Shown here: positions 1 through 57,510 of the stretch, one piece after another
Layout: each line of letters begins with the position of its first letter
Position numbering within the stretch: position 1 is the stretch's first letter
DNA from: a plasmid
Reading direction: 5' to 3' (one strand)
DNA length: 64,000 nt
Sequence record: NZ_CP082905.1
The notes under the pieces: model-generated
What the model was told of the DNA's origin: nothing
What the model saw: the letters and a program-made list of their open reading frames with translations, nothing else
The model's database searches: none
Made by a program: the position numbers and the translations under genes

Positions 1-257
1 GTGCAGCATGGGCCGCAACGTTGACGATATCGTCAATCAGCGTTAATATTGAACACAGTTAGCAGGTACAAGCAGCACCGTACAGGCAGCGGTCACCAGC
101 CGCGTCCGGTACAGAAAATTAACTCGGTTTACCAGACCGGGTTTTTTTTCGCCTCAAAGATGCCATTTCCGGCACAACTCAGATCCTATACGCATTCTGT
201 TTATTCCCCTAATTTTCACCGATGGTTTTTAGCGTCTCTTTACGCTTTTATACGCAA

Positions 258-283
258 TTCGGTAAAACGCCCATAAAACCGAA
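258..283. repeat. 26-bp palindromic site S1 (ttcggtaaaacgcc cataaaaccgaa); 12-2-12 layout resembling Hin/Gin hix/gix recombination sites
   Basis: Read directly; the left half-site ttcggtaaaacg is conserved in 6 copies, all in the same orientation. Confidence 0.6.
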
Positions 284-384
284 GCCCTTTCCGGCAGCAT
301 GTCCCTTCGGGTAGCTTTTATCTGAGTCTTTAACATAGCCCATGTGGTAGCCTGCACCGGTGGCTCTCAGAGAGGTTTATTCAA

Positions 385-603
385 TTGAAATGGTTCAAGA
401 TTTATAATCCTAAAAGTAAACAATGGCTTCAGCAAGATGAGGAAAATGGGAGATATGGCACTCGTATTATCTTCACACAGGATGAATCCCGTGCGGGGTT
501 CTGGTCTGAAACAGAAATCCGCTGGATGACCATCCCGCCAGGATCAGAACTTATTTCTTTCAGCCCGAGCCAGGAGGATATCCGATACCGGTATTGGGAA
601 TGA
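385..603 (+). CDS. small hypothetical cassette protein (72 aa), TTG start
   Basis: ORF with an agagg RBS 9 nt upstream; lies between sites S1 and S2. Confidence 0.4.
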   Translation: MKWFKIYNPKSKQWLQQDEENGRYGTRIIFTQDESRAGFWSETEIRWMTIPPGSELISFSPSQEDIRYRYWE

Positions 604-643
604 ACCAAACCGGTCAAGAGATCTTTATGCCTATTCGCCCTTG

Positions 644-669
644 TTCGGTAAAACGCCTATATTACCGAA
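644..669. repeat. 26-bp site S2 (ttcggtaaaacgcc tatattaccgaa)
   Basis: Read directly. Confidence 0.6.
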
Positions 670-696
670 CCGCAGCACTGTACAATGCCTGTCTCA

Positions 697-1344
697 TCAC
701 GCCTGATCTTCAGCTGCTGATTTACGTGCCCGTGCTGCAACACGGCTTGCGTATCTTTCCTTACGGCGTATCGCTGCTGCCGATTCGGATGCTCTTATTT
801 CTATTAAGCGTTTTCTGATGGCCTCTGCCGGATTGAACCCCTCTTCCCATGAGGTATGCCTGATGTTAAACGTCCGGCAAATATCTTCTGACAACTCGAC
901 CACATAAAGGCCATGCTTCGCATACAACTCCCGCCTCTTTGCGAAGTAAGCCGAAAAATCTGGGGGATCTTCAAAATACTCATCATCAAGATTGTCGAGT
1001 GTGTTGATGACCTGAATATGTTTAGATTCGATGCTGTGCAGCCGGTACAGCATATTAGTATTAAGGTATTTAAATTCGCCTTTTACCGCTGAGAGTTTTA
1101 GCTCTGGTTTATTATATTTCATTGACACATATTCCAACTCTTGGCTATATATACCATCATTGCTCGCAAGAAACTCACACTCGGAAATATATTTATCAAG
1201 AATAAAAACAAGCTGAACAATAATATATCTCTCTTCTTTTTTTCCTTTTTTTGTTTCCCAGACAAGCTCTTTGACTGCATTAAAAATCAGGGGTACTGCT
1301 ATCGCAGCCGCAGCCCCCAGTAATGTCCATGTTTCCTTTTCCAC
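697..1344 (-). CDS. membrane-anchored hypothetical protein (about 216 aa); proposed GTG start at 1344 with a GAGG RBS. The 273-aa track ORF extends N-terminally across site S3.
   Basis: AT-rich ORF with a TM helix LLGAAAAIAVPLIFNAV; GAGG lies 6 nt upstream of the GTG; it is the only minus-strand cassette in the array. Confidence 0.45.
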   Translation of the reverse strand: MEKETWTLLGAAAAIAVPLIFNAVKELVWETKKGKKEERYIIVQLVFILDKYISECEFLASNDGIYSQELEYVSMKYNKPELKLSAVKGEFKYLNTNMLYRLHSIESKHIQVINTLDNLDDEYFEDPPDFSAYFAKRRELYAKHGLYVVELSEDICRTFNIRHTSWEEGFNPAEAIRKRLIEIRASESAAAIRRKERYASRVAARARKSAAEDQA

Positions 1345-1445
1345 TGAAACCCTCGCCCATGCTGCAAGTATTCTTACCCTACAGTTTATACTGTACGACA
1401 GGATGGCCTGCTTAGCTTTTACCAAAGCTGACCTATCTCTCCGGA

Positions 1446-1471
1446 TTCGGTAAAACGCCAATTCTGCCGAA
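1446..1471. repeat. 26-bp site S3 (ttcggtaaaacgcc aattctgccgaa)
   Basis: Read directly. Confidence 0.55.
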
Positions 1472-1537
1472 CCGTGAAACGGCGCACGCTGCCGGCTATA
1501 ATTGCTGTCGCGATTCATTCACTAAAAGGAACAAATC

Positions 1538-1849
1538 TTGAAAACGGGATTAATTTCACTGAGCTTGCTGGCCGCCGTACTGCTTACCGGCTGCGATGCA
1601 GGCGCGCAGAGCCTTGAATGGTATAAGGCGCATGATAAGGAGCGAAACGCAAAAGTTGAAGAGTGTAAGAAAGCCTCGAATCCGCGTGGCACCGAAGACT
1701 GCCGTAACGCGATTGATGCTTCTGTTCGTGCTGGGGGCAATATTACACATAGCAAACCTAAAGAGTGGACTCTCGATGGTTCTAAGGGTTATCTGGGGAT
1801 AAGCCGCCGCGAGGCGGTTTTTTTACGCTCTTCTCCGGGCATTCGGTAA
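1538..1849 (+). CDS. small lipoprotein (lipobox LLTGC); possibly an entry-exclusion-type (TrbK-like) lipoprotein
   Basis: Signal peptide with an LTGC lipobox; Cys-containing mature region. The TrbK analogy is a weak recollection only. Confidence 0.45.
   Translation: MKTGLISLSLLAAVLLTGCDAGAQSLEWYKAHDKERNAKVEECKKASNPRGTEDCRNAIDASVRAGGNITHSKPKEWTLDGSKGYLGISRREAVFLRSSPGIR
1803..1827 (+). terminator. Rho-independent terminator (gccgccgcgaggcggttttttt)
   Basis: GC stem followed by a T7 run, immediately upstream of site S4. Confidence 0.7.
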
Positions 1850-1867
1850 AACGCCTATAAAACCGAA
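1842..1867. repeat. 26-bp site S4 (ttcggtaaaacgcc tataaaaccgaa), the most symmetric copy
   Basis: Read directly. Confidence 0.6.
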
Positions 1868-2236
1868 TTTGCCATGTAAACAAAAAATCCGCCCCAGTGG
1901 GACGGCCTAAAACGGTAAGCTGTTTTATGTCCCCAGGGGGACTTCATCTCCGATTAAAGAAAATTTTCGATTAGGGACAGTATAACTGTCACCAGATTAA
2001 TCACTGCCGTAATAAGCTCGATCATAACCCGCATCCTCATGCTGATGCGTGGCGTTTACCTACCTCCCGCCGTATATTCGCCCAGAAGGTTTCGGAACTC
2101 CGCTTTCGCTAAGAATGAAGTTAACCACACATATATTGCCCCCGGCCCAGGGATGCGACCCCCTTCGTCTGGGACTCCTTCCTTACAGCTCGTTCCCTCT
2201 GTTACCAAAAAATCAGTTCTAACTTAGGAGATTAAA

Positions 2237-2320
2237 ATGACTGATTACCGCAGTGTTGCGCGGTTTTTTACTGAAGCACTATATGGATTCATCTTAGCGA
2301 TGCGGAAGTATAAAGCGTAA
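2237..2320 (+). CDS. 27-aa peptide MTDYRSVARFFTEALYGFILAMRKYKA with a strong AGGAG RBS
   Basis: taggagattaaaATG context; flanked by a duplicated 23-bp motif gctaagaatgaagttaaccacac at about 2110 and 2381. Confidence 0.3.
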   Translation: MTDYRSVARFFTEALYGFILAMRKYKA

Positions 2321-2470
2321 GCACGACTTATCAAAGCGGGATTTGATAAGGTAGGTCATATGACGTACACTGAAAGAGCTAAGAATGAAGTTAACCACAC
2401 CGTTATGCCAGCCTGCGAAACTGACGTAACGGTAAGAAACCCTGCCCTAGAGCGGGGTTTCTGCCATCTG

Positions 2471-2497
2471 ACCGCCGCCAGGCGGTTTTTTTACGCC
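2471..2497 (+). terminator. Rho-independent terminator (accgccgccaggcggttttttt)
   Basis: GC stem followed by a T7 run, upstream of site S5. Confidence 0.7.
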
Positions 2498-2509
2498 CTT
2501 TTCCCGCCG

Positions 2510-2535
2510 TTCGGTAATACCTCAATCCTGCCGGA
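2510..2535. repeat. 26-bp site S5, degenerate (ttcggtaatacc tc aatcctgccgga)
   Basis: Read directly. Confidence 0.45.
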
Positions 2536-2664
2536 TGGTTCCCGCTGCGGCCTGTTGGTTCTGTTTTTCAAGGCTATTGTCGGGGCTACATTTAGTAATT
2601 TGAAAAACTCCACAAACTGATATGATTATCTTCATCTACCTAAGGCCAACACACAGAGCAAAAC

Positions 2665-3702
2665 GTGTCCATGCATAAATCAAAAGAACAAGTTGCAGAA
2701 ATATTGAGCGATTATTTTACTCTTTGTATTGCAATTGTGACTGAAGATTCTTCAGATTATCAAAAGCACGTTCTAACCTATCAATTTTCCCGGCAACAAG
2801 TCTTGGGGCTGGATAACGAGTTAATGCTCCCTAATTGGATTTTAGCCGCTGCAAGTATTCCTCTTTTAAAGTCTCATGTTGACTTACATGTTCAGGGGGG
2901 GGCGGGAAGTTGGGCCAGGAGACGAACTTATCTCCACTCAGTAATGGACACCATTCTGCAAACCTATAGAAATCCTGTAGCATCTAACTTTTCGCAGGCA
3001 ATGGCTGATGCTTTTAAAGCAGCTAAGTCTGCCCCACCTTCTTATCAAGACGCGGGATCATCTAACTTTTCGCAAGCAATGGCTGATGCTTTTAAAGCAG
3101 CTAAGTCTGATTCACCTTCTTATCAAGACGCGGGATCATTGCTTTTATCACAGCATGCTGAAAATTCACATAAATCCTCTTATGAACACCAGGGTAATGT
3201 CTCTTATCCATCTAAGCAACCGACAAGTGACAACATTCGTCAGGAAGAGTTAAAGCTGGGTATGTCTAATGCCGGAAGCCCAGACGTGGAAAGTAAAAAG
3301 AAGGTGTTTATAGTTCATGGCCATGATGAGCTGTTAAAAAATGAAGTATATGTTTTTCTGAGTCAGGAAGGCTATGAACCCATAATACTCCATCTTCAGG
3401 CAAATAAGGGATCAACCATCATTGAAAAGCTTGAAGAGAATATTGCAGACGTTTCGTTCGCCGTGATTTTATATACAGCATGTGATCAAGGTAAATCTTT
3501 TAAAGAGGCTGATTTGAAATCCCGTGCGCGTCAGAACGTTGTTTTTGAGCATGGGTATTTAATCTGTAAGCTTGGCAGAGAACGCGTGGCTGCCCTTAAA
3601 AGTGACGGTGTTGAAATACCTGGTGATCTCTCCGGGCTAATAACTATCCCAACGAGTAACTGGCAGTATGAACTCCTGAAAGAACTGAAAGCAGCCAATT
3701 GA
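2665..3702 (+). CDS. two-domain protein: novel N-terminal region with an internal 20-aa tandem repeat, plus a C-terminal TIR-like nucleotide-binding domain (PF10137-type, CAP12-like); candidate defence effector
   Basis: C-terminus carries KVFIVHGHDE, IILHLQANKGSTIIEKLE, FAVILYTACD, RARQNVVFEHGYLICKLGRERV and EIPGDLSGL, matching the TIR-like family signature as I recall it. An SNFSQAMADAFKAAKS..PSYQDAGS unit is duplicated (nt 2983-3048 and 3062-3127). Confidence 0.6.
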   Translation: MSMHKSKEQVAEILSDYFTLCIAIVTEDSSDYQKHVLTYQFSRQQVLGLDNELMLPNWILAAASIPLLKSHVDLHVQGGAGSWARRRTYLHSVMDTILQTYRNPVASNFSQAMADAFKAAKSAPPSYQDAGSSNFSQAMADAFKAAKSDSPSYQDAGSLLLSQHAENSHKSSYEHQGNVSYPSKQPTSDNIRQEELKLGMSNAGSPDVESKKKVFIVHGHDELLKNEVYVFLSQEGYEPIILHLQANKGSTIIEKLEENIADVSFAVILYTACDQGKSFKEADLKSRARQNVVFEHGYLICKLGRERVAALKSDGVEIPGDLSGLITIPTSNWQYELLKELKAAN

Positions 3703-3717
3703 AACAACAACCGGTAA

Positions 3718-3738
3718 CCGCCGCCAGGCGGTTTTTTT
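3718..3738 (+). terminator. Rho-independent terminator (ccgccgccaggcggttttttt)
   Basis: GC stem followed by a T run, upstream of site S6. Confidence 0.7.
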
Positions 3739-3755
3739 ACGCCCTTCTCCGGGCA

Positions 3756-3781
3756 TTCGGTAAAACCCTTATATTACCGAA
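3756..3781. repeat. 26-bp site S6 (ttcggtaaaacc ct tatattaccgaa)
   Basis: Read directly. Confidence 0.55.
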
Positions 3782-3900
3782 TCGCCCCGCTGCGGCGCTG
3801 AATACTATATGTTGTGCTTTTCCCAGCTGGCAGACATACGAGATATAGTGGTCTGACGGTCATCGCCGGGGCAGGCCGCGCCGGTTTTCCCGCTGCGCCG

Positions 3901-3936
3901 TTCGGTAAAACTCCGGCAGCGGAGGCTTTAACCGAA
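3901..3936. repeat. site S7 variant: the same half-sites separated by a 12-bp spacer (ttcggtaaaact ... tttaaccgaa)
   Basis: Read directly. Confidence 0.4.
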
Positions 3937-4023
3937 TGCGATTTACCGCCAGCGGAGTTTTTCTTCTTGTCTTTTTTCAGAATCATGTCGAGAAGCACTA
4001 ATCCTATTAGGATTATCAGGTGA

Positions 4024-4140
4024 GCCCTTATGACATGTACTAATACGGTCGGTTTCGTACATGTAGAATATAGCCTGTCCGAAAGTTAGTGTTTTTAATT
4101 TCGGACATGCGCTATAATAAGTACACCTATTTCGTACACA
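4024..4140. promoter_or_regulatory. res-like accessory site and promoter region of the recombinase gene (repeated tgtac/gtaca dyads: acatgtactaatacgg...tttcgtacatgt, tttcgtacaca)
   Basis: Imperfect inverted repeats of a TGTAC core immediately upstream of the serine recombinase, as in resolvase res sites. Confidence 0.4.
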
Positions 4141-4150
4141 AAATAACTAC

Positions 4151-4747
4151 ATGTCACGAGTCTTTGCCTACTGCAGGGTATCGACCCTCGAACAGAACAC
4201 TGAAAACCAGCGTCGTGAAATCGAAGCGGCCGGCTTTGCCATCAGACCCCAGCGACTGATTGAAGAGTACATAAGTGGTTCAGTCGCGGCTGCTGAACGC
4301 CCTGGATTTATGCGTCTCCTTGATCGAATGGAAAACGGGGACGTTTTAATCGTAACGAAGCTGGATCGCCTCGGGCGAAACGCCATGGATATCAGAAAAA
4401 CCGTTGAGCTACTTTCTGCGTCAGAAATACGGGTACACTGCCTGGCGCTGGGAGGGGTAGACCTCACCAGTCCGGCCGGAAAGATGACAATGCAGGTAAT
4501 CTCGGCGGTTGCTGAATTTGAGCGCGATCTGCTACTTGAACGTACACATGCTGGTATTGCGCGGGCTAAGGCATCCGGAAAGCGTTTCGGCCGCCCGCCG
4601 GCTCTGGATGACGAACAAAAGAAAGCGGTGTTCTTGCGTCTTAGTGAAGGGAAGAGTATCAGCGCGATCGCCCGCGAATTTGACACCACACGGCAGACCA
4701 TTTTAAGAGTGAAAGCGATAATGGAAGACGCTGATGCTCGTTCATGA
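4151..4747 (+). CDS. serine recombinase (resolvase/invertase family) with a C-terminal HTH
   Basis: N-terminal YCRVSTLEQ catalytic-Ser motif, an LDRLGR motif, 198 aa in total, C-terminal HTH. Confidence 0.85.
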
Positions 4748-4839
4748 GTTGCTTTTCTGCGTATGTCCGCTTTGTGCCATAAGCGGACGTTATTCCGATA
4801 ACAAAGAGCGGAACAACGAAGAATATAAATAGCTAAACT

Positions 4840-5724
4840 TCAGATTTTCAGTATATCAATGACGACTCTCAGTGCCGGCGACACATTGCGGTGAGGATAA
4901 TACAGGAATGAACCTTCCAGGCGCTGGCTGTAACGTGGCAACGCCCTGATAAGATTGCCTTGCTCTAAATCATCAGCGACCAGTTCCTCCGGGACATAAG
5001 CCAGCCCCAGCCCCAGTCTGGCTGCTTTTGCTTCCATGTAGCTGTCAGAAAAGGCCCACTGTCCTTGTGGTCGGTGCGTTATTTTTTTACCGTCCTGAAG
5101 GAGTTCCCACTGATAAAGGCTACCATCGGCAAACTGGTAGGCTATACAAGGATGAATCACTAAATCAGCCGGTGTTTGTGGAAAGCCATAGCGACGAAAA
5201 TGCTCGGGCGTAGCTACAACAACCATCTCCATGTCAGGTGTAATACGCACCGCGACCATGCCCTGTCCTACCTCCGGCCCCAGCCGCACGCCGGCATCAA
5301 ACCGCTCAGCGATAATATCGACGAACCGGCTTTCACTGATGAGTTCAAGCCTGATATCGGGGTAACGGTGCTTAAATAGCGCCAGCTTCGGTAAAAGAAC
5401 TTTATCAATAGCATGCTGGCTGGCATTGATGCGTACCGTACCGGACGGGGTATTCCGGTAATACGCCAGCGTGGCAAGACCCGTATCTAAAGCATCAAAT
5501 CCGGATTCTGTTGTCTGATACAGTTGCTCACCTGCCTGTGTTAACGACAGCCTGCGCGTAGTGCGAACCAGAAGCTGTATACCCAGCCTTTCTTCAAGTT
5601 CACGGACAGAACGACTAACGCCTGATTGTGCAAGTCCAAGACGATGTGCCGCTGCAGTGAAACTGCCCTCCCGCACCACCTGCATAAACAAGTAGAGCTC
5701 ATTATAGTTTTCCCGTTTTGCCAT
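4840..5724 (-). CDS. LysR-family transcriptional regulator
   Basis: N-terminal HTH (LYLFMQVVREGSFTAAAHRLGLAQSGVSRSVRELEERLG) and a LysR substrate-binding fold. Confidence 0.85.
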   Translation of the reverse strand: MAKRENYNELYLFMQVVREGSFTAAAHRLGLAQSGVSRSVRELEERLGIQLLVRTTRRLSLTQAGEQLYQTTESGFDALDTGLATLAYYRNTPSGTVRINASQHAIDKVLLPKLALFKHRYPDIRLELISESRFVDIIAERFDAGVRLGPEVGQGMVAVRITPDMEMVVVATPEHFRRYGFPQTPADLVIHPCIAYQFADGSLYQWELLQDGKKITHRPQGQWAFSDSYMEAKAARLGLGLAYVPEELVADDLEQGNLIRALPRYSQRLEGSFLYYPHRNVSPALRVVIDILKI

Positions 5725-5923
5725 TTGCGCGTCCTCAGAATATCTGGCCGCAAATGATGTCTGCTGCGGCCCTTCATTTATAACAATATGCTATTAATCC
5801 TAGCAATTTTTACCCTCTAATCAGCACTATTTCTGCTACCTATAATGAGCGCATTGCATCAAAGCACAGCAGTACTCTCCGTATGAAACCGGTACCTCAC
5901 TTTTCTTTTTCAGGGGAATTTAA

Positions 5924-7060
5924 ATGAATGTTTTCACCAGAAAGCTGACAGCCGCGCTACCCGCTACGCTGCTATGCGTATCATTAAGTGGAGTTACGAC
6001 AATGAGTTATGCTGACACATCTAATCCGAACTCGCCTGTTTCAATGGTAGAAAAATGGGATAAAACCTTTGCAGAGAGCGATAAGGTTGATCATCGCAAG
6101 GTGGCATTCCAGAACCGTTACGGGATCATATTAGTAGGGGATCTTTACATCCCCAAAAACCGGGGCGAACGTAAACTGGCTGCGATTGCATTAAGTGGTC
6201 CTTTCGGTGCGGTCAAAGAGCAATCAAGCGGCCTGTATGCACAGACCCTGGCCGAACAGGGATTTGTTGCGCTGGCATTCGATCCTTCTTACACGGGTGA
6301 AAGTGGTGGCTATCCGCGTAATGTCGCCTCTCCGGATATCAACACTGAGGACTTTAGCGCGGCGGTTGATTTCCTTGGATTACAAAAAGAGGTGGATCGC
6401 CATCGTATTGGATTACTCGGTATTTGCGGCTGGGGAGGCATGGCACTCAATGCGGCGGCGATGGATACACGCGTAAAAGCAGTTGCAACCAGCGTGATGT
6501 ACGACATGAGCCGGGCGATGGGACATGGCGTTGGTGATGGCAAAGACCGTTATTCAACAGCCGATCGCCGTGCCGTATTACAGTACCTGAACGAGCAGCG
6601 CTGGAAAGATGCTGAAAGCGGAACTATCGCCCGCGGTAGTCACGATATTAATGTGGATAAGAATGGCAGCGTAAGCGCTTCTGAGCGAATTCTGCCGGAA
6701 ACATTACCCGCGAATCCACACCCGGTACTGAAAGAGTTTTTTGATTATTACAGAATGCCACGCGGCTTCCATGGGCGTTCTGTTAACTCTAATGGCGCAT
6801 GGAATGCAACGATGCCCTTGTCGTTTATGAATATGCCGCTGCTTAGCTACGCAAATGAAATCACTATTCCTGTGTTGATTGTTACAGGTGAAAAAGCGCA
6901 CTCGCGCTATTTTGCAGAAGATGCCTACAAAGCGGTTGGCAGCACTGAAAAAGAGCTTGTGATCGTCCCCGGCGCAAACCACGTGGACTTATACGACAAC
7001 GCTGCAGGTAAGATCCCTTTTGCCAGGTTTGAACAGTTTTTCAAAACCAGCTTAAGGTAA
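5924..7060 (+). CDS. secreted alpha/beta hydrolase, dienelactone-hydrolase-like (Cys nucleophile elbow GICGWGG)
   Basis: Signal peptide; G-x-C-x-G-G motif; divergent from the LysR gene. Confidence 0.6.
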   Translation: MNVFTRKLTAALPATLLCVSLSGVTTMSYADTSNPNSPVSMVEKWDKTFAESDKVDHRKVAFQNRYGIILVGDLYIPKNRGERKLAAIALSGPFGAVKEQSSGLYAQTLAEQGFVALAFDPSYTGESGGYPRNVASPDINTEDFSAAVDFLGLQKEVDRHRIGLLGICGWGGMALNAAAMDTRVKAVATSVMYDMSRAMGHGVGDGKDRYSTADRRAVLQYLNEQRWKDAESGTIARGSHDINVDKNGSVSASERILPETLPANPHPVLKEFFDYYRMPRGFHGRSVNSNGAWNATMPLSFMNMPLLSYANEITIPVLIVTGEKAHSRYFAEDAYKAVGSTEKELVIVPGANHVDLYDNAAGKIPFARFEQFFKTSLR

Positions 7061-7416: not shown

Positions 7417-8550
7417 TTAAGGCTTAAGGATAACCTTCGTCCATCCCTCATCGCGATCGTCAAAGTGCTTATATCCCTCAGGCGCCTCAGCAAGTGAAAG
7501 ACGGTGTGAGATTATGCCGCCCGGGCTGGCTTTACCCTGATGGATCAGACGGGCCAGCTGACGATTATAGGCTTTGGCGTTCGCCTGGCCGGTGCGGATT
7601 GACTGTCCTTTAAGCCAAAAACTGCCGAAATCAAACGGCATCTTACCTTCTTTGGCAAGGTCTGATGCAGCTCCCGGATCCTGCGGGATAAACACGCCAA
7701 CCACACCAATTCCCCCGGTTGCTTTGGTTGATGCAACGAGGCTGTTCATAGTGACCGAATTATCTTCATGGCCATGTTTGTTACAGCACTGATAGCCCAC
7801 GCATTCACAGCCACAGTCAGTGCCGCGTCCGTCAGTTAAGTCGAGAATTCGTTGCACGGCTTCATCGCCGGTCGCATTGATGCCCGTCGCCCCCATTTTC
7901 TCTGCCAGCGCTAAACGGTCCTGGTGTGTATCCACTACAAATACCTGTGAAGCGCCTTTTATCATGGCTGAGTGTGCGGCCATCAGACCCACCGGCCCCG
8001 CGCCGTAAATGGCTACGCTTTCGCCAGGCTTTAATCCGGCGAGTTCTGTCGCATGCCAGCCGGTAGGGAAAATGTCAGAGAGCATCACATAATCATCTTC
8101 TTTTTCTACTGCGTCAGGCGGAAGCACCAGGCAGTTAAAGTCTGCAAAGGGGACCCGAAGCAGTTCCGCCTGACCACCCTCCCAGGAGCCCATTTCAGCA
8201 AAACCATAGGCCGCGCCCACAGCACCGGGATTGGTGGTGAGGCAAAAACCGGTCAGACCTTTTTCACAATTCTCGCAAAAACCGCATCCGACATTAAATG
8301 GCAGACAGACATAGTCACCGACCTTAACACGCTCCACTCCTGAGCCAATTTCAACCACCTCACCCAGGTTTTCGTGCCCCAAAATACGTCCCTGCTCAAA
8401 GCTGGTCCGACCCTCGTACATGTGCAAATCCGATCCACAAATATTGGTGGTGGTAATGCGGACAAGCACATCGGTGGGGCGAACAATTTTTGCATCCGGC
8501 ACGTCTTTAACTTTTACATCATAGGGACCGTTGTAAATAACTGCTTTCAT
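7417..8550 (-). CDS. fdhA: glutathione-independent formaldehyde dehydrogenase (Zn-dependent MDR alcohol dehydrogenase, FdhA-like)
   Basis: GHE..G Zn site, a Cys-rich structural Zn loop, GxGxxG Rossmann fold; start MKAVIYNG with an RBS (the track ORF is N-extended). Confidence 0.7.
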   Translation of the reverse strand: MKAVIYNGPYDVKVKDVPDAKIVRPTDVLVRITTTNICGSDLHMYEGRTSFEQGRILGHENLGEVVEIGSGVERVKVGDYVCLPFNVGCGFCENCEKGLTGFCLTTNPGAVGAAYGFAEMGSWEGGQAELLRVPFADFNCLVLPPDAVEKEDDYVMLSDIFPTGWHATELAGLKPGESVAIYGAGPVGLMAAHSAMIKGASQVFVVDTHQDRLALAEKMGATGINATGDEAVQRILDLTDGRGTDCGCECVGYQCCNKHGHEDNSVTMNSLVASTKATGGIGVVGVFIPQDPGAASDLAKEGKMPFDFGSFWLKGQSIRTGQANAKAYNRQLARLIHQGKASPGGIISHRLSLAEAPEGYKHFDDRDEGWTKVILKP

Positions 8551-8732
8551 GATCTTCTCCTGCTTGCGGCCGGAAAGGTGTGGCTGCCCTACCGGGTAAG
8601 TGTCAACTAAGTTTAGCTGCCATGATTGATAACGCAATCGACAGCAAGGCAATCGGGAGGTTTCTTATCGGATACGTTGAGGAATGCTGGCCGGGGATGA
8701 CGGTCAAAGACAGCCGGGAAAAGGTCAGGATC

Positions 8733-8891
8733 ATGCCGCATCAAGCCGAGCGGCAGCAGCCGGTAGCGTTGCGGGAATATTTGCGTAAAACAGTTATCAA
8801 TTATCGGCAGCAATCTCAGACGCAGCCTGAAGGTAAAGACCCGATTTATCAGAAAGATGATTTACCTTACACCCGGCCAGTTTTTGCCTGA
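8733..8891 (+). pseudogene. 3' fragment homologous to the C-terminal half of the 85-aa protein at 15015-15272
   Basis: PVALREYLRKTVINYRQQSQTQPEGKDPIYQKDDL versus PAGLREYFRERLQHYRSVALQFPKGTDSVYQKEE. Confidence 0.4.
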
Positions 8892-9916: not shown

Positions 9917-10257
9917 TATTTTTTCCAGTGGCGGTCGAGCTCCGCCTGGGCAAAATACGCTGAAGCCTGACGCAGAATATCATTGCTGCGGCGCAGCTCG
10001 CGGACTTCCCGCTCCAGTTCTTTCAGACGCTGGCGTTCGCTGGCAGTCAGCGCATTCTGCTCATCATCAACGGGCTCCTGCTGACGGATCCAGATACGCA
10101 ATGTCTCGGGAGTGCAGCCGATCTTAGGGGCAATGGAGCAGATAGCGGCCCATTGTGAGTTGTAGGTATTCTGGTTTTCCAGAACCATACGAATAGCGCG
10201 TTGACGAACTTCAGGGGGAAATCGGTTATGTTTTGTCATCCTGGTTACCTCTCTCAA
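9916..10257 (-). CDS. IS3-family transposase OrfA (HTH)
   Basis: MTKHNRFPPEVRQRAIRMVLE..., leucine-zipper-like C-terminus, overlaps orfB. Confidence 0.8.
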   Translation of the reverse strand: MREVTRMTKHNRFPPEVRQRAIRMVLENQNTYNSQWAAICSIAPKIGCTPETLRIWIRQQEPVDDEQNALTASERQRLKELEREVRELRRSNDILRQASAYFAQAELDRHWKK

Positions 10258-56445: not shown

Positions 56446-57510
56446 AATTTTTGATTTTAATGTCCGCTATGTTCCAGAAGCGGAAGTTGGGATGCCAGAG
56501 ACTCTCTAAAAGTGGATGGTTCTTTTTAGGGAAACGTACAGTGGCGGCAGGCATGATAGAGCTGATAAGCTATGTATAGAGTTAAAAATTCATTTAATCG
56601 CGAGATAATAATCAAATTATGAAAAGAATTATTCCTGATAAAAATTGGTGGGATAACGAGAGTCATAATCGAAATGCTGCAACAGTTTGTCCATACGCTA
56701 ATTCGCATAGCTGCCCTCGATATCATTACAGTGTAGTTCTGCTTAAACGTATTAACATGATAGCGGGCATAACGGATAAAAAAGAGGAGGAGTTGAGTGA
56801 GTATTGGGAAAGAACTAAATTTTCATCTTTATGTGATGAAGAAACCCCCTCGGTTTATTCCAATGAAAATGGCGGCGTTTCATCAATCATTAACTTTTGC
56901 CCTGAAATATCATATAAGTATTTTTACTATTATGCTGATTACATGTGTAAATATGTCGATGGAATTGATCAAGATTCAGGCGTACGCATTGCGGAAAAAG
57001 AAAATTTAAAAAATGACTGGAAGTATTCATGGATGGAAGTTCATCCTAGATTTTATTTGGATTGCGATGTATTTAATCATGTTAAACTGTTTAATGAAAC
57101 TTTGGGAAATGATTACCTAAAAAGATTGCATCCCAATATTGTTCAGCAAATAAGTAGAATGAATAATTGTTTAGATTCCAATGACCCGGCAGGAGCGTTG
57201 CACGCTGCCTCTAACATTTTAGAAACAATGGCGAAAGATATTTCTCAAAATCCAAATGTATCAAATCAATCACTGGGTGGTTTTTTTGAGCAATTCAAGA
57301 AAAATTCAAGCTTACCTGATAACCTTATTGATGCGATTAAAGATATTTACAATTTGCGTAACAGATTACCTACTGCTGGACACGGAAGTCTGGACAAGCC
57401 TGAATTGACTATGGCAGATGCTATAGCTATTGCTGCATTGACAAAAGCGATATTAGAAATTGAATATCGAAGCAAGGCCATCTAATAAGTCAAATTCATT
57501 AACGCTTCAA
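56446..57510. other. AT-rich island inserted into the repeat array
   Basis: Sharp GC drop; it removes the promoter-proximal half of repeat R4. Confidence 0.6.
56619..57485 (+). CDS. Abi_C-like (abortive-infection C-terminal domain) protein, 288 aa
   Basis: C-terminal LHAASNILETMAKDI...IYNLRNRLPTAGHGS resembles the RN..aHG signature of the Abi_C domain; the gene is AT-rich and on the strand opposite all other leading genes. Confidence 0.5.
   Translation: MKRIIPDKNWWDNESHNRNAATVCPYANSHSCPRYHYSVVLLKRINMIAGITDKKEEELSEYWERTKFSSLCDEETPSVYSNENGGVSSIINFCPEISYKYFYYYADYMCKYVDGIDQDSGVRIAEKENLKNDWKYSWMEVHPRFYLDCDVFNHVKLFNETLGNDYLKRLHPNIVQQISRMNNCLDSNDPAGALHAASNILETMAKDISQNPNVSNQSLGGFFEQFKKNSSLPDNLIDAIKDIYNLRNRLPTAGHGSLDKPELTMADAIAIAALTKAILEIEYRSKAI

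Follow-up and report, generated by a model that had tools for sequence, protein, structure and literature searches.

The closest described relatives of the element considered here are the rfsF sites of the ResD/rfsF resolution system, which is found in F and in plasmids of the incompatibility (Inc) groups F, I1 and R. An rfsF site consists of imperfect inverted repeats of 10-14 bp around a spacer of 6-8 bp (PMC5587640). In IncI1 and IncR plasmids neighboring variable gene sets are reported to have been switched, and insertions to have occurred, at rfsF (PMC8004404, PMC9412624, PMC12310702). Here we describe an array of directly repeated sites that appear to belong to this type, lying at positions 258-4747 of a 64-kb stretch of plasmid DNA (sequence record NZ_CP082905.1; the whole stretch is termed the window below). 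An earlier note had interpreted the array as gene cassettes delimited by hix/gix-like palindromes, had assigned these to an adjacent serine recombinase of the Hin/resolvase family, and had suggested that no similar system was described. The last suggestion falls, as the sites are homologous to rfsF of F, an already reported exchange point. The role of rfsF as an exchange hot spot has already been reported, and the multi-site array of single-gene modules would be a new form of it. On balance we favor, with some reserve, the view that the modules were stacked at an rfsF-type site, a target of the ResD family, whose own tyrosine recombinase is now absent.

The repeated sites and the probable rfsF-type locus

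Sequence reading and pattern searches located six 26-bp sites, directly repeated on the + strand between 258 and 3781 as earlier proposed, and added to them a seventh copy, S7, a 36-bp variant in the same direction (3901-3936); pattern searches recovered no further copy in the remaining 60 kb of the window. The pattern TTCGGT-N15-CCGAA, sought on both strands with at most one mismatch, gave 11 strand-hits, all within 258-3781, against an expectation of 1.55, and none of 100 shuffled controls reached 11. The 26-bp rfsF-like sites are S1 (258-283, TTCGGTAAAACGCCCATAAAACCGAA, with the central 6 bp CGCCCA), S2 (644-669, TTCGGTAAAACGCCTATATTACCGAA, with the centre CGCCTA, identical to that of S4), S3 (1446-1471, TTCGGTAAAACGCCAATTCTGCCGAA, centre CGCCAA), S4 (1842-1867, TTCGGTAAAACGCCTATAAAACCGAA, centre CGCCTA), the degenerate S5 (2510-2535, TTCGGTAATACCTCAATCCTGCCGGA, centre CCTCAA, followed by a right flank of the A type, CCCGCTGCGGC) and S6 (3756-3781, TTCGGTAAAACCCTTATATTACCGAA, centre CCCTTA). 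In S7 the arms TTCGGTAAAA...TAACCGAA, as in the other sites, enclose a longer centre with an internal hairpin.

Comparison of 21 distinct copies from 12 loci yielded the consensus TTCGGTAAAAC-S-CC-N-AT-W-N-T-R-CCGAA, whose positions 1-8 served to find the sites and are hence invariant partly by construction. True palindromy is limited to the outer 6 bp (TTCGGT...ACCGAA), so that the earlier description of the sites as palindromes holds for these positions and not for the rest of the site. The 12-2-12 geometry proposed with it is one possible drawing; an 11-6-11 reading, (A)TTCGGTAAAA-CSCCNA-WNTRCCGAA(Y), in which one flanking base is counted per side, fits equally well and holds in the 21 distinct copies. 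By this reading each site would comprise two imperfect inverted arms of ~10-11 bp (of the ATTCGGTAAAA and TTTTACCGAAY types) flanking an asymmetric 6-bp centre, C-S-C-C-N-A, and given this asymmetry the sites have a direction. Arm changes are paired in two cases, as a base-pairing (hairpin) form of the palindrome would predict, namely in an Erwinia plasmid (L021, CTCGGT...ACCGAG) and in a Klebsiella plasmid of the MOBP type (L003, TTCGGG...CCCGAA), and are non-compensated in several other copies.

The last two sites, S6 and S7, are sites A and B of a larger conserved unit (3756-3968), which runs from site A through a core centred on CAGCTG and site B to a hairpin and its T run. The core (3804-3851) takes the form ACTATATGTTGTG ... 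CAGCTG (3824-3829) ... GATATAGTGG with quasi-palindromic flanks, and the 3' arm of the hairpin with its T run (3946-3968, + strand) pairs with AAAACTCCG inside site B. Window positions 3745-3972 align collinearly with modules that precede a tyrosine recombinase gene in two MOBC plasmids (L001 and L105), with those of an IncR-type plasmid (L008) and a Pantoea ananatis plasmid (L020), and with the DNA in front of ccdAB-resD in the F-type plasmid L101. Neither CAGCTG nor the motifs beside it vary among the six aligned relatives, the F-type one included. In the relatives the tyrosine recombinase gene begins ~60-100 bp beyond the T run of the hairpin. Four MOBC plasmids of 35-56 kb (L001, L002, L004, L105) and the MOBP plasmid L003 carry only sites A and B, directly upstream of such a gene (encoding ~225-255 amino acids, aa); elsewhere the terminal site pair adjoins IncN or IncR iterons. 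Thus, all five plasmids with a cognate tyrosine recombinase possess A and B only, and arrays of three to seven sites occur in replicons without a recombinase nearby.

The homology extends to F itself, whose palindrome reads AGATCCGAAAA-CCCCAA-GTTACGGATCT (first base, F nucleotide (nt) 45922). Its central CCCCAA is identical to that of an IncN site (L005 1848, TTCGGTAAAA-CCCCAA-TTTTTCCGAA), and the left linker TTCTCCGG and the AAAA-CCCCAA centre are likewise common to the TTCGGT-type sites and the F site. Both the F palindrome and the TTCGGT sites, when read as 11-6-11, agree with the published description of rfsF (PMC5587640). The recombinases beside the TTCGGT-type modules are full-length ResD homologues; that of L001 has 41% identity to F ResD over 259 aa, and the L105 and L003 enzymes are respectively 75% and 47% identical to the L001 enzyme. 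The arms track the recombinase clade, with GATCCG accompanying the F-type enzymes and TTCGGT those of L001, L105 and L003. ResD homologues were recovered by tblastn in at least 5000 plasmids of PLSDB. Based on these sequence comparisons, we are fairly confident in assigning the repeats to the rfsF type and in reading 3756-3968 as a complete locus of that type, from which the recombinase gene was lost or in which it was replaced.

Certain further features of these loci were observed in the relatives. F has a second rfsF-type palindrome, GATCCGAAAAAAGGTAAAACCGGAAC, situated 4.8 kb upstream of rfsF in the same orientation and differing by one mismatch, for which we estimate a chance expectation of ~2e-4 in 10.4 kb. 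Between the two palindromes (5092-5117 and 9924-9949 in the F sequence L110, F nt ~41091 and 45923) lie the pif phage-exclusion region and another two genes. Similarly, two F-type palindromes surround a RES-toxin module in L108. Several relatives have, between site A and the core, an inverted pair of DnaA-box-like sequences, TTATCCAC.../...GTGGATAA (L003 8375-8400, L004 ~8075-8110, L105 ~8725-8760, and ~5870-5900 in L111, the chromosome of E. coli NCTC11023), with no such pair in the window; this arrangement recalls, by analogy, oriV-1 next to rfsF in F.

Cargo, terminator units and module boundaries

The three sites S4, S5 and S6 are preceded by nearly identical terminator-like hairpins (1806-1818, 2470-2487 and 3716-3733), each of which is followed by T7ACGCC. 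A terminator scan placed the full elements, T1 (1806-1825, GCCGCGAGGCGGT plus T run), T2 (2470-2494) and T3 (3716-3740), on the + strand, in agreement with what had been noted before. The linker between terminator and site is conserved (T7ACGCCCTTCTCCGGGCA), and the site begins 16 bp past the T run and 23 bp past the terminator stem; the spacing of 10-20 bp given earlier thus holds when counted from the T run and not from the stem. T1 forms part of a repeated terminator-linker-site unit of ~75 bp. A search of window 1-6000 against Rfam with E up to 1 recovered no family, and no known RNA therefore explains these units or the toxin-like module described below. A promoter reading, by which site positions 15-20 resemble a -10 hexamer, was rejected, as no acceptable -35 is present at the proper spacing on either strand.

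The open reading frames (ORFs) between the sites are those previously listed, and their AT-richness proved modest (36-45% G+C in the cargo versus ~50% at the boundaries). The interval S1-S2 encodes a 72-aa ORF (385-603, + strand) with no match in Pfam, NCBIfam or PADLOC. The next ORF (697-1518, - strand) matches over residues 74-256 the PADLOC single-gene defence candidate PDC-S67 (E 6.6e-31), and its true start probably lies downstream of S3, at ~1350 or below. It is followed by a gene for an entry-exclusion lipoprotein of the IncN-type EexN family (1538-1849, + strand; NF033894, E 6.4e-16). The eexN module is also present in three other Erwiniaceae plasmids, partly as a pseudogene and with different neighbors. 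The eexN gene of the window is an orphan module in that the transfer genes of this plasmid are F-like (MOBF, TraI), and pseudogenised copies occur in non-conjugative Pantoea and Duffyella plasmids (L006, L007).

The interval S4-S5 (1868-2469, - strand) contains a 28-aa hydrophobic ORF (1954-2040, - strand), a minus-strand terminator (1905-1889) and a 23-bp direct repeat, GCTAAGAATGAAGTTAACCACAC, at 2107 and 2384, together with a 27-aa ORF at 2237-2320. It matches no Rfam and no NCBIfam family, is kept in IncN (L005 ~3725-4310) and MOBC plasmids (L001 ~6050-6660), and from its layout looks like a type I toxin-antitoxin module. The last interval carries a gene for a TIR-domain protein (2665-3702, + strand), which is recognized by the Pfam model CAP12-PCTIR_TIR (the CAP12/Pycsar-type TIR) and by PADLOC as PDC-S35 (E 2e-63). 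The N-terminal part of this protein shows a tandem duplication of ~26 aa (window 2980-3140; SNFSQAMADAFKAAKS..PSYQDAGS, twice). Judging by these profile matches, the cargo appears to consist mostly of defence candidates, along with the entry-exclusion lipoprotein and the type-I-toxin-like module. The array thus forms a small island of defence and competition genes next to a site of resolution, like pif next to rfsF in F.

Comparable arrays with other contents were found on reading representatives of each plasmid type that matched. In the IncN plasmid pKPC_FCF/3SP (L005 and L100) four direct sites (1848, 3650, 3699 and 4357) lie between two iteron clusters and separate a pair of SEC-C-domain genes and the same toxin-like module as window 1868-2469. 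In the IncR-type plasmid four direct sites separate genes for an HNH endonuclease, a DUF4238-like protein and an NYN protein, the last of which matches HEC-09 in PADLOC. The Pantoea ananatis plasmid has three direct sites, the first two of which enclose a ComF-like phosphoribosyltransferase gene pair, with a PsyrT/ShosT-like match in PADLOC. The expectation that the content between sites would vary while the sites persist is therefore borne out, as the IncN, IncR, Pantoea and window arrays hold different genes.

The 79-bp terminator-linker-site unit matches 336 PLSDB records, which are Enterobacterales plasmids (IncN, IncR, MOBC, MOBP and those of Pantoea and Erwinia). Within E. coli the module is present in 37 of 5426 genomes, at 33 plasmid and 5 chromosomal places. 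Scans for the exact pattern recovered 9 matches in GTDB species representatives, 70 in JGI metagenomes and 8 in IMG/VR, and none in the phage collection. Each of these matches stands alone in unrelated taxa, neither arrays nor a terminator context accompany them, and their number is close to the chance expectation; none of the nine GTDB matches comes from an Enterobacterales record. From these scans we conclude that the element is restricted to plasmids of Enterobacterales and a small number of integrated elements. A search of open-access full text for the site sequence on both strands found unrelated primers only.

Pairwise BLAST comparisons of window 1-4800 with the fetched loci revealed that the limits of homology coincide with the sites and their terminators. 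Matches start at 1441/1446 (S3), 1799-1804 (T1), 2446/2472 (T2), 3715-3718 (T3) and 3754 (S6), and end at 1858-1869 (S4), 2520-2551 (S5 with a short right flank), 3781-3783 (S6) and 3962-3977, where the hairpin past site B ends. The homology with L003 stops at 271, where the conserved left half of S1 ends. Matches of the eexN module with L006 and L007 span 1441-1858 and 1446-1888, and the NYN module of the IncR plasmid recurs in the Erwinia plasmid from site to site. In the comparison of L020 with IncN, the L020 insert has a site and a further 13 bp at either end. Relative to L001, whose flanks are collinear and 91% identical, the window has an extra segment comprising S5, the TIR gene and a terminator (S5 to T3). 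The F-type locus is present in 4070 plasmids, and in the matches sampled its left homology ends cluster at the left edge of the palindrome or inside it (query positions 150-155, 168-172 and 191-195). Of site A, a chromosomal island by guaA in E. coli NCTC11023 (L111 5800-6100) retains the right half alone (TATATTACCGAA), which puts the junction midway in the 26-bp site; the island continues, downstream of a SMEK-domain gene, with the DnaA-box pair, a degenerate core, site B and the hairpin.

At the left end of the region, window 1-176 is non-coding and conserved, with a strong terminator (121-143) at its end, and Pantoea and Erwinia plasmids contain unannotated DNA of 91-94% identity to it. 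Window 89-271 is 74% identical to the DNA before site A in Klebsiella plasmids of the L003 type.

Formation of the array and alternative explanations

Given these observations, a mechanism might be proposed in which the five intervals upstream of 3756 each represent one transcription unit, mostly with a defence or competition gene and often ending in a terminator-linker-site element, and were stacked by recombination at or beside rfsF-type sites, each event leaving a copy of the site at the junction. A ResD-type enzyme would bind both arms and exchange strands within the asymmetric 6-bp centre. Recombination between sites of two replicons and subsequent loss of the greater part of the resulting cointegrate would leave a module flanked by site copies; alternatively, recombination with secondary sites could have the same outcome, and repeated events of either kind might build an array. 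A serine resolvase with its own res now occupies the position where the relatives carry the tyrosine recombinase gene. In tyrosine recombinases, differing central bases should limit recombination between sites. Central hexamers that differ by 1-3 nt might thereby bar most pairs of sites and stabilize the array, with S2 and S4 as the exception.

The proposal is supported by the collinear alignments, the match with rfsF of F, the ResD homologues beside the sites in relatives, the limits of homology at the site units and at the F-type palindrome, the half site of L111, the arrays elsewhere with other cargo, the presence of two sites only in the recombinase-bearing plasmids, the defence-type cargo and the exchanges reported at rfsF. 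Several observations weigh against it. By tblastn the 64-kb window encodes no ResD homologue, so that nothing there acts on the sites in cis and the window holds only the site part of a ResD/rfsF system. Since the cognate recombinase is absent, the array is probably frozen or inert unless a ResD-type enzyme is supplied in trans. ResD homologues of 44-47% identity from pOXA-48-type, Hafnia and IncX1 sources have no recognisable site in the 2.5-6 kb upstream of them. The centre of site B is too long for a conventional core site, and rfsF is equated with the F palindrome on the strength of a coordinate from one paper and a verbal description from another, not of a published footprint or crossover map. 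About 190 plasmids share the IncR array at 100% identity, the IncN array is similarly fixed, and no recent precise excision was seen among the IncN and IncR relatives sampled. Finally, the joint of the TIR indel, the one reasonably recent indel among the loci compared, lies in a 30-bp identical terminator segment to the left of the palindrome, not inside it, and fits homologous recombination as well as anything.

The broader proposition that ResD resolvases and rfsF-type sites constitute a defence-gene cassette system across plasmid groups is less likely than not, and we put it forward tentatively. Under such a system single-gene modules with a 3' terminator-linker-site element would be captured and stacked at the resolution locus. 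The differences of 1-3 bases between centres would make most neighboring sites heterospecific, so that the array would be stable and exchange with a matching foreign site would be possible, and a co-resident plasmid could supply the recombinase in trans. The part of the original cassette reading that survives is a family of direct sites marking the boundaries of modules with variable content; the part that does not is the link to the serine recombinase.

It is rather unlikely, though with several points in its favor, that the repeats are mere boundary relics, in which the terminator, linker and relic rfsF palindrome serve only as short patches of homology for RecA recombination, the palindromes have no present function and the array grew and shrinks passively. 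The TIR joint in its 30-bp stretch of terminator identity, the fixed arrays of the IncN and IncR lineages and the absence of a cognate recombinase in cis are as would be expected from such an origin. So are the decaying copies, namely S5, a copy at ~6040 in L001 and those in L006, L007 and L021. That repeated upstream elements can undergo homologous recombination is documented for the CUP repeats of IncN plasmids (PMC3490853, PMC5371602), which offer a precedent. Against this, the arms and the C-S-CC-N-A centre are conserved in the 21 distinct copies amid unrelated flanks and cargo, junctions fall at or near the middle of a site in L111 and in the comparison of the window with L003 (ending at 271), and the F-type breakpoints cluster at the palindrome. 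Moreover, a patch of 26 bp is short for efficient RecA recombination. Taken together, the TIR joint, the fixed IncN and IncR arrays and the decaying copies leave room for both site-specific and homologous stacking.

An operator function, raised in the earlier note as the simpler alternative, in which the sites would bind one protein, possibly a ResD-type repressor, that co-regulates the small genes, appears improbable. In its favor, S1, S3 and S5 are located 60-150 bp upstream of + strand ORFs, and a promoter-like site (1474-1502, 10 of 12 matches), the sole promoter found in the site scan, lies directly 3' of S3. The D protein of F (ResD) reportedly represses transcription besides resolving dimers, and the CUP elements of IncN join a regulator site and a promoter at each operon. 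However, S2 and the site at L008 8158 are each placed between convergent genes, where no promoter is needed, and the site orientation is constant whatever strand the cargo gene uses; together these two features argue against simple operators. Furthermore, the window and the IncN, IncR and MOBC loci share no candidate regulator protein, and the nine exact-pattern matches in species-representative genomes are isolated, with none in Enterobacterales. Among candidates examined separately, a shared regulator (ArdK, KorA, StbA or another) was rejected, as the window and the other site-bearing loci share only cargo and transfer proteins. Sites for host factors (Xer, CRP, Fis, IHF, DnaA, CpxR and others) were also rejected, as none of these fits.

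The serine recombinase that follows the array (4151-4747, + strand) is a 198-aa protein with Resolvase and HTH_7 domains, preceded by a res-like region (4044-4145, + strand) with TTTCGTACA repeats and a TGTCCGAAA-N-TTTCGGACA dyad. Its matches to the Gin invertase (4m6f, E 2.6e-27) and the gamma-delta resolvase (1gdt, E 1.2e-23) mark it as a generic small serine recombinase about equally near to both. A megablast search of window 1-4800 against PLSDB showed that the res-like dyads and the recombinase gene (4029-4792) recur as a 96-99% identical module in more than 200 plasmids of Klebsiella, Pantoea and others, and recovered no record that covers this module together with the rest of the region. 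In a Pantoea soli plasmid (L103, module 99% identical) and a Citrobacter plasmid (L104) no TTCGGT-type site is present within 6-8 kb. As the module occurs without sites in these two plasmids, its position beside the array is not conserved. The gene and its res form a separate module, and a role as the cognate enzyme of the sites is not supported. The use of the sites by this enzyme as hix/gix-like 12-2-12 targets for cassette excision, capture or exchange, as originally envisaged, is thus very improbable. In its favor, only ~215 bp (3936 to 4151) separate the gene and the last site, Gin and the gamma-delta resolvase are about equally near to the protein, and the left half TTCGGTAAAACG agrees with the hixL half-site TTCTTGAAAACC in 8 of 12 positions. 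Against it, the homology of the recombinase module begins as a distinct unit at 4029-4050, arrays elsewhere lie beside tyrosine recombinase genes or iterons, the right half-site is unlike the left beyond the outer 6 bp, the sites are all direct with none inverted, and they are homologous to rfsF.

Another repeated hairpin, GTCCGCT-N8-AGCGGAC, often with GTTAT after it, is met where modules adjoin in these plasmids. In the window it is found at 4765-4793, just past the serine recombinase gene, and at 56462-56485. Elsewhere it occurs in L103 (8716, 15092 and 15134), L104 (9669) and L020 (~8665 and 10325), adjoins the first IncN site (L005 ~1806) and follows the IncR HNH gene (L008 ~7925). The left-flank homology of IncN and IncR breaks within this hairpin.

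Comparison with described systems and significance

In conceptual terms the array resembles the pdif modules of Acinetobacter, the CUP regulons of IncN plasmids and integrons, but it belongs to none of these. No description of single defence genes arrayed between rfsF-type sites was found in open-access full text, an absence that is weak evidence. Were the cassette proposition true, the multimer-resolution locus of IncF, IncI1, IncN, IncR and related plasmids would be a general entry point for defence and exclusion genes, with a logic like that of integrons or Acinetobacter pdif and driven by a different and very widespread recombinase family. This would account for the defence-rich variable regions beside rfsF in F (pif) and IncI1, and would provide a simple sequence signature for finding such islands. 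If the sites are relics and the stacking homologous, the array would illustrate plasmid mosaic anatomy and little beyond. Site-specific capture, if shown, would raise its importance considerably.

With the Hin/Gin targets hix and gix the sites share the length of 26 bp and an A tract in the left half. They differ from these in being direct and symmetric only in the outer 6 bp, and in the occurrence of the recombinase module without them in L103 and L104. Xer sites (cer, dif and pdif) have 11-bp XerC and XerD arms around a centre of 6-8 bp. The sites described here also stand apart from these, as by eye, against the dif and cer consensus, their inner arms are A/T runs and not CATAA/TTATG.

Integron cassettes likewise form a direct array of mostly single-gene units that end in terminator-like imperfect palindromes, and a tyrosine recombinase is implicated in both. 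In contrast to integrons, the present array has no IntI, no attC layout of R''/L''/L'/R' and no common Pc, its genes lie on either strand and there is no evidence of free circular cassettes. The window has no tyrosine recombinase, and the L001-type enzyme falls far below the cut-offs for integron integrases.

The CUP elements of IncN plasmids are comparable in being directly repeated intergenic elements that start successive small operons in a plasmid accessory region, and deletions and inversions between CUP repeats are documented. They differ in being G+C-rich, several hundred bp in length and furnished with an ArdK site and a promoter. On reading the CUP copies of pKPC_FCF/3SP, none was found to carry a TTCGGT site, which ruled out CUP repeats as the identity of the units, and the window has no ArdK homologue. 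The CUP5 element before ardB (L100 9820-9866) carries the rfsF core motif ACTATATGTAGTG...CAGCTG...TATATAGTG, and the CUP regulon and the rfsF-type locus thus appear to be linked through a common sequence block.

The likeness to pdif lies in the fact that, in Acinetobacter, short core sites of the plasmid-resolution type for tyrosine recombinases bound accessory modules in varied plasmid contexts. The pdif sites are 28-bp XerC-6-XerD sites for the Xer enzymes of the host, and usually alternate in orientation. The sites of the array have another sequence and a single orientation, and the enzyme to which they are linked is of the ResD type and plasmid-encoded.

It is the ResD/rfsF system of F, IncF, IncI1 and IncR that the array matches in kind. 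The sites share with rfsF the imperfect inverted arms, the 6-bp centre, CCCCAA/CSCCNA and TTCTCCGG, and the two systems also have in common the collinear order of a site, the CAGCTG core and a second site, upstream of a ResD-family gene in the relatives. In both, the variable neighborhood is rich in phage defence (pif in F, pifA/ibfA in IncI1). The array differs from F in its arms (TTCGGT/ACCGAA versus GATCCG/CGGATC) and in the cognate recombinases of the TTCGGT type, which are only 41-47% identical to F ResD. It also has up to seven direct sites with single-gene modules, as opposed to one or two sites. At the level of the sites the array therefore conforms to the ResD/rfsF system, and an adjacent recombinase of the appropriate family, lacking in the window, accompanies them in the relatives.

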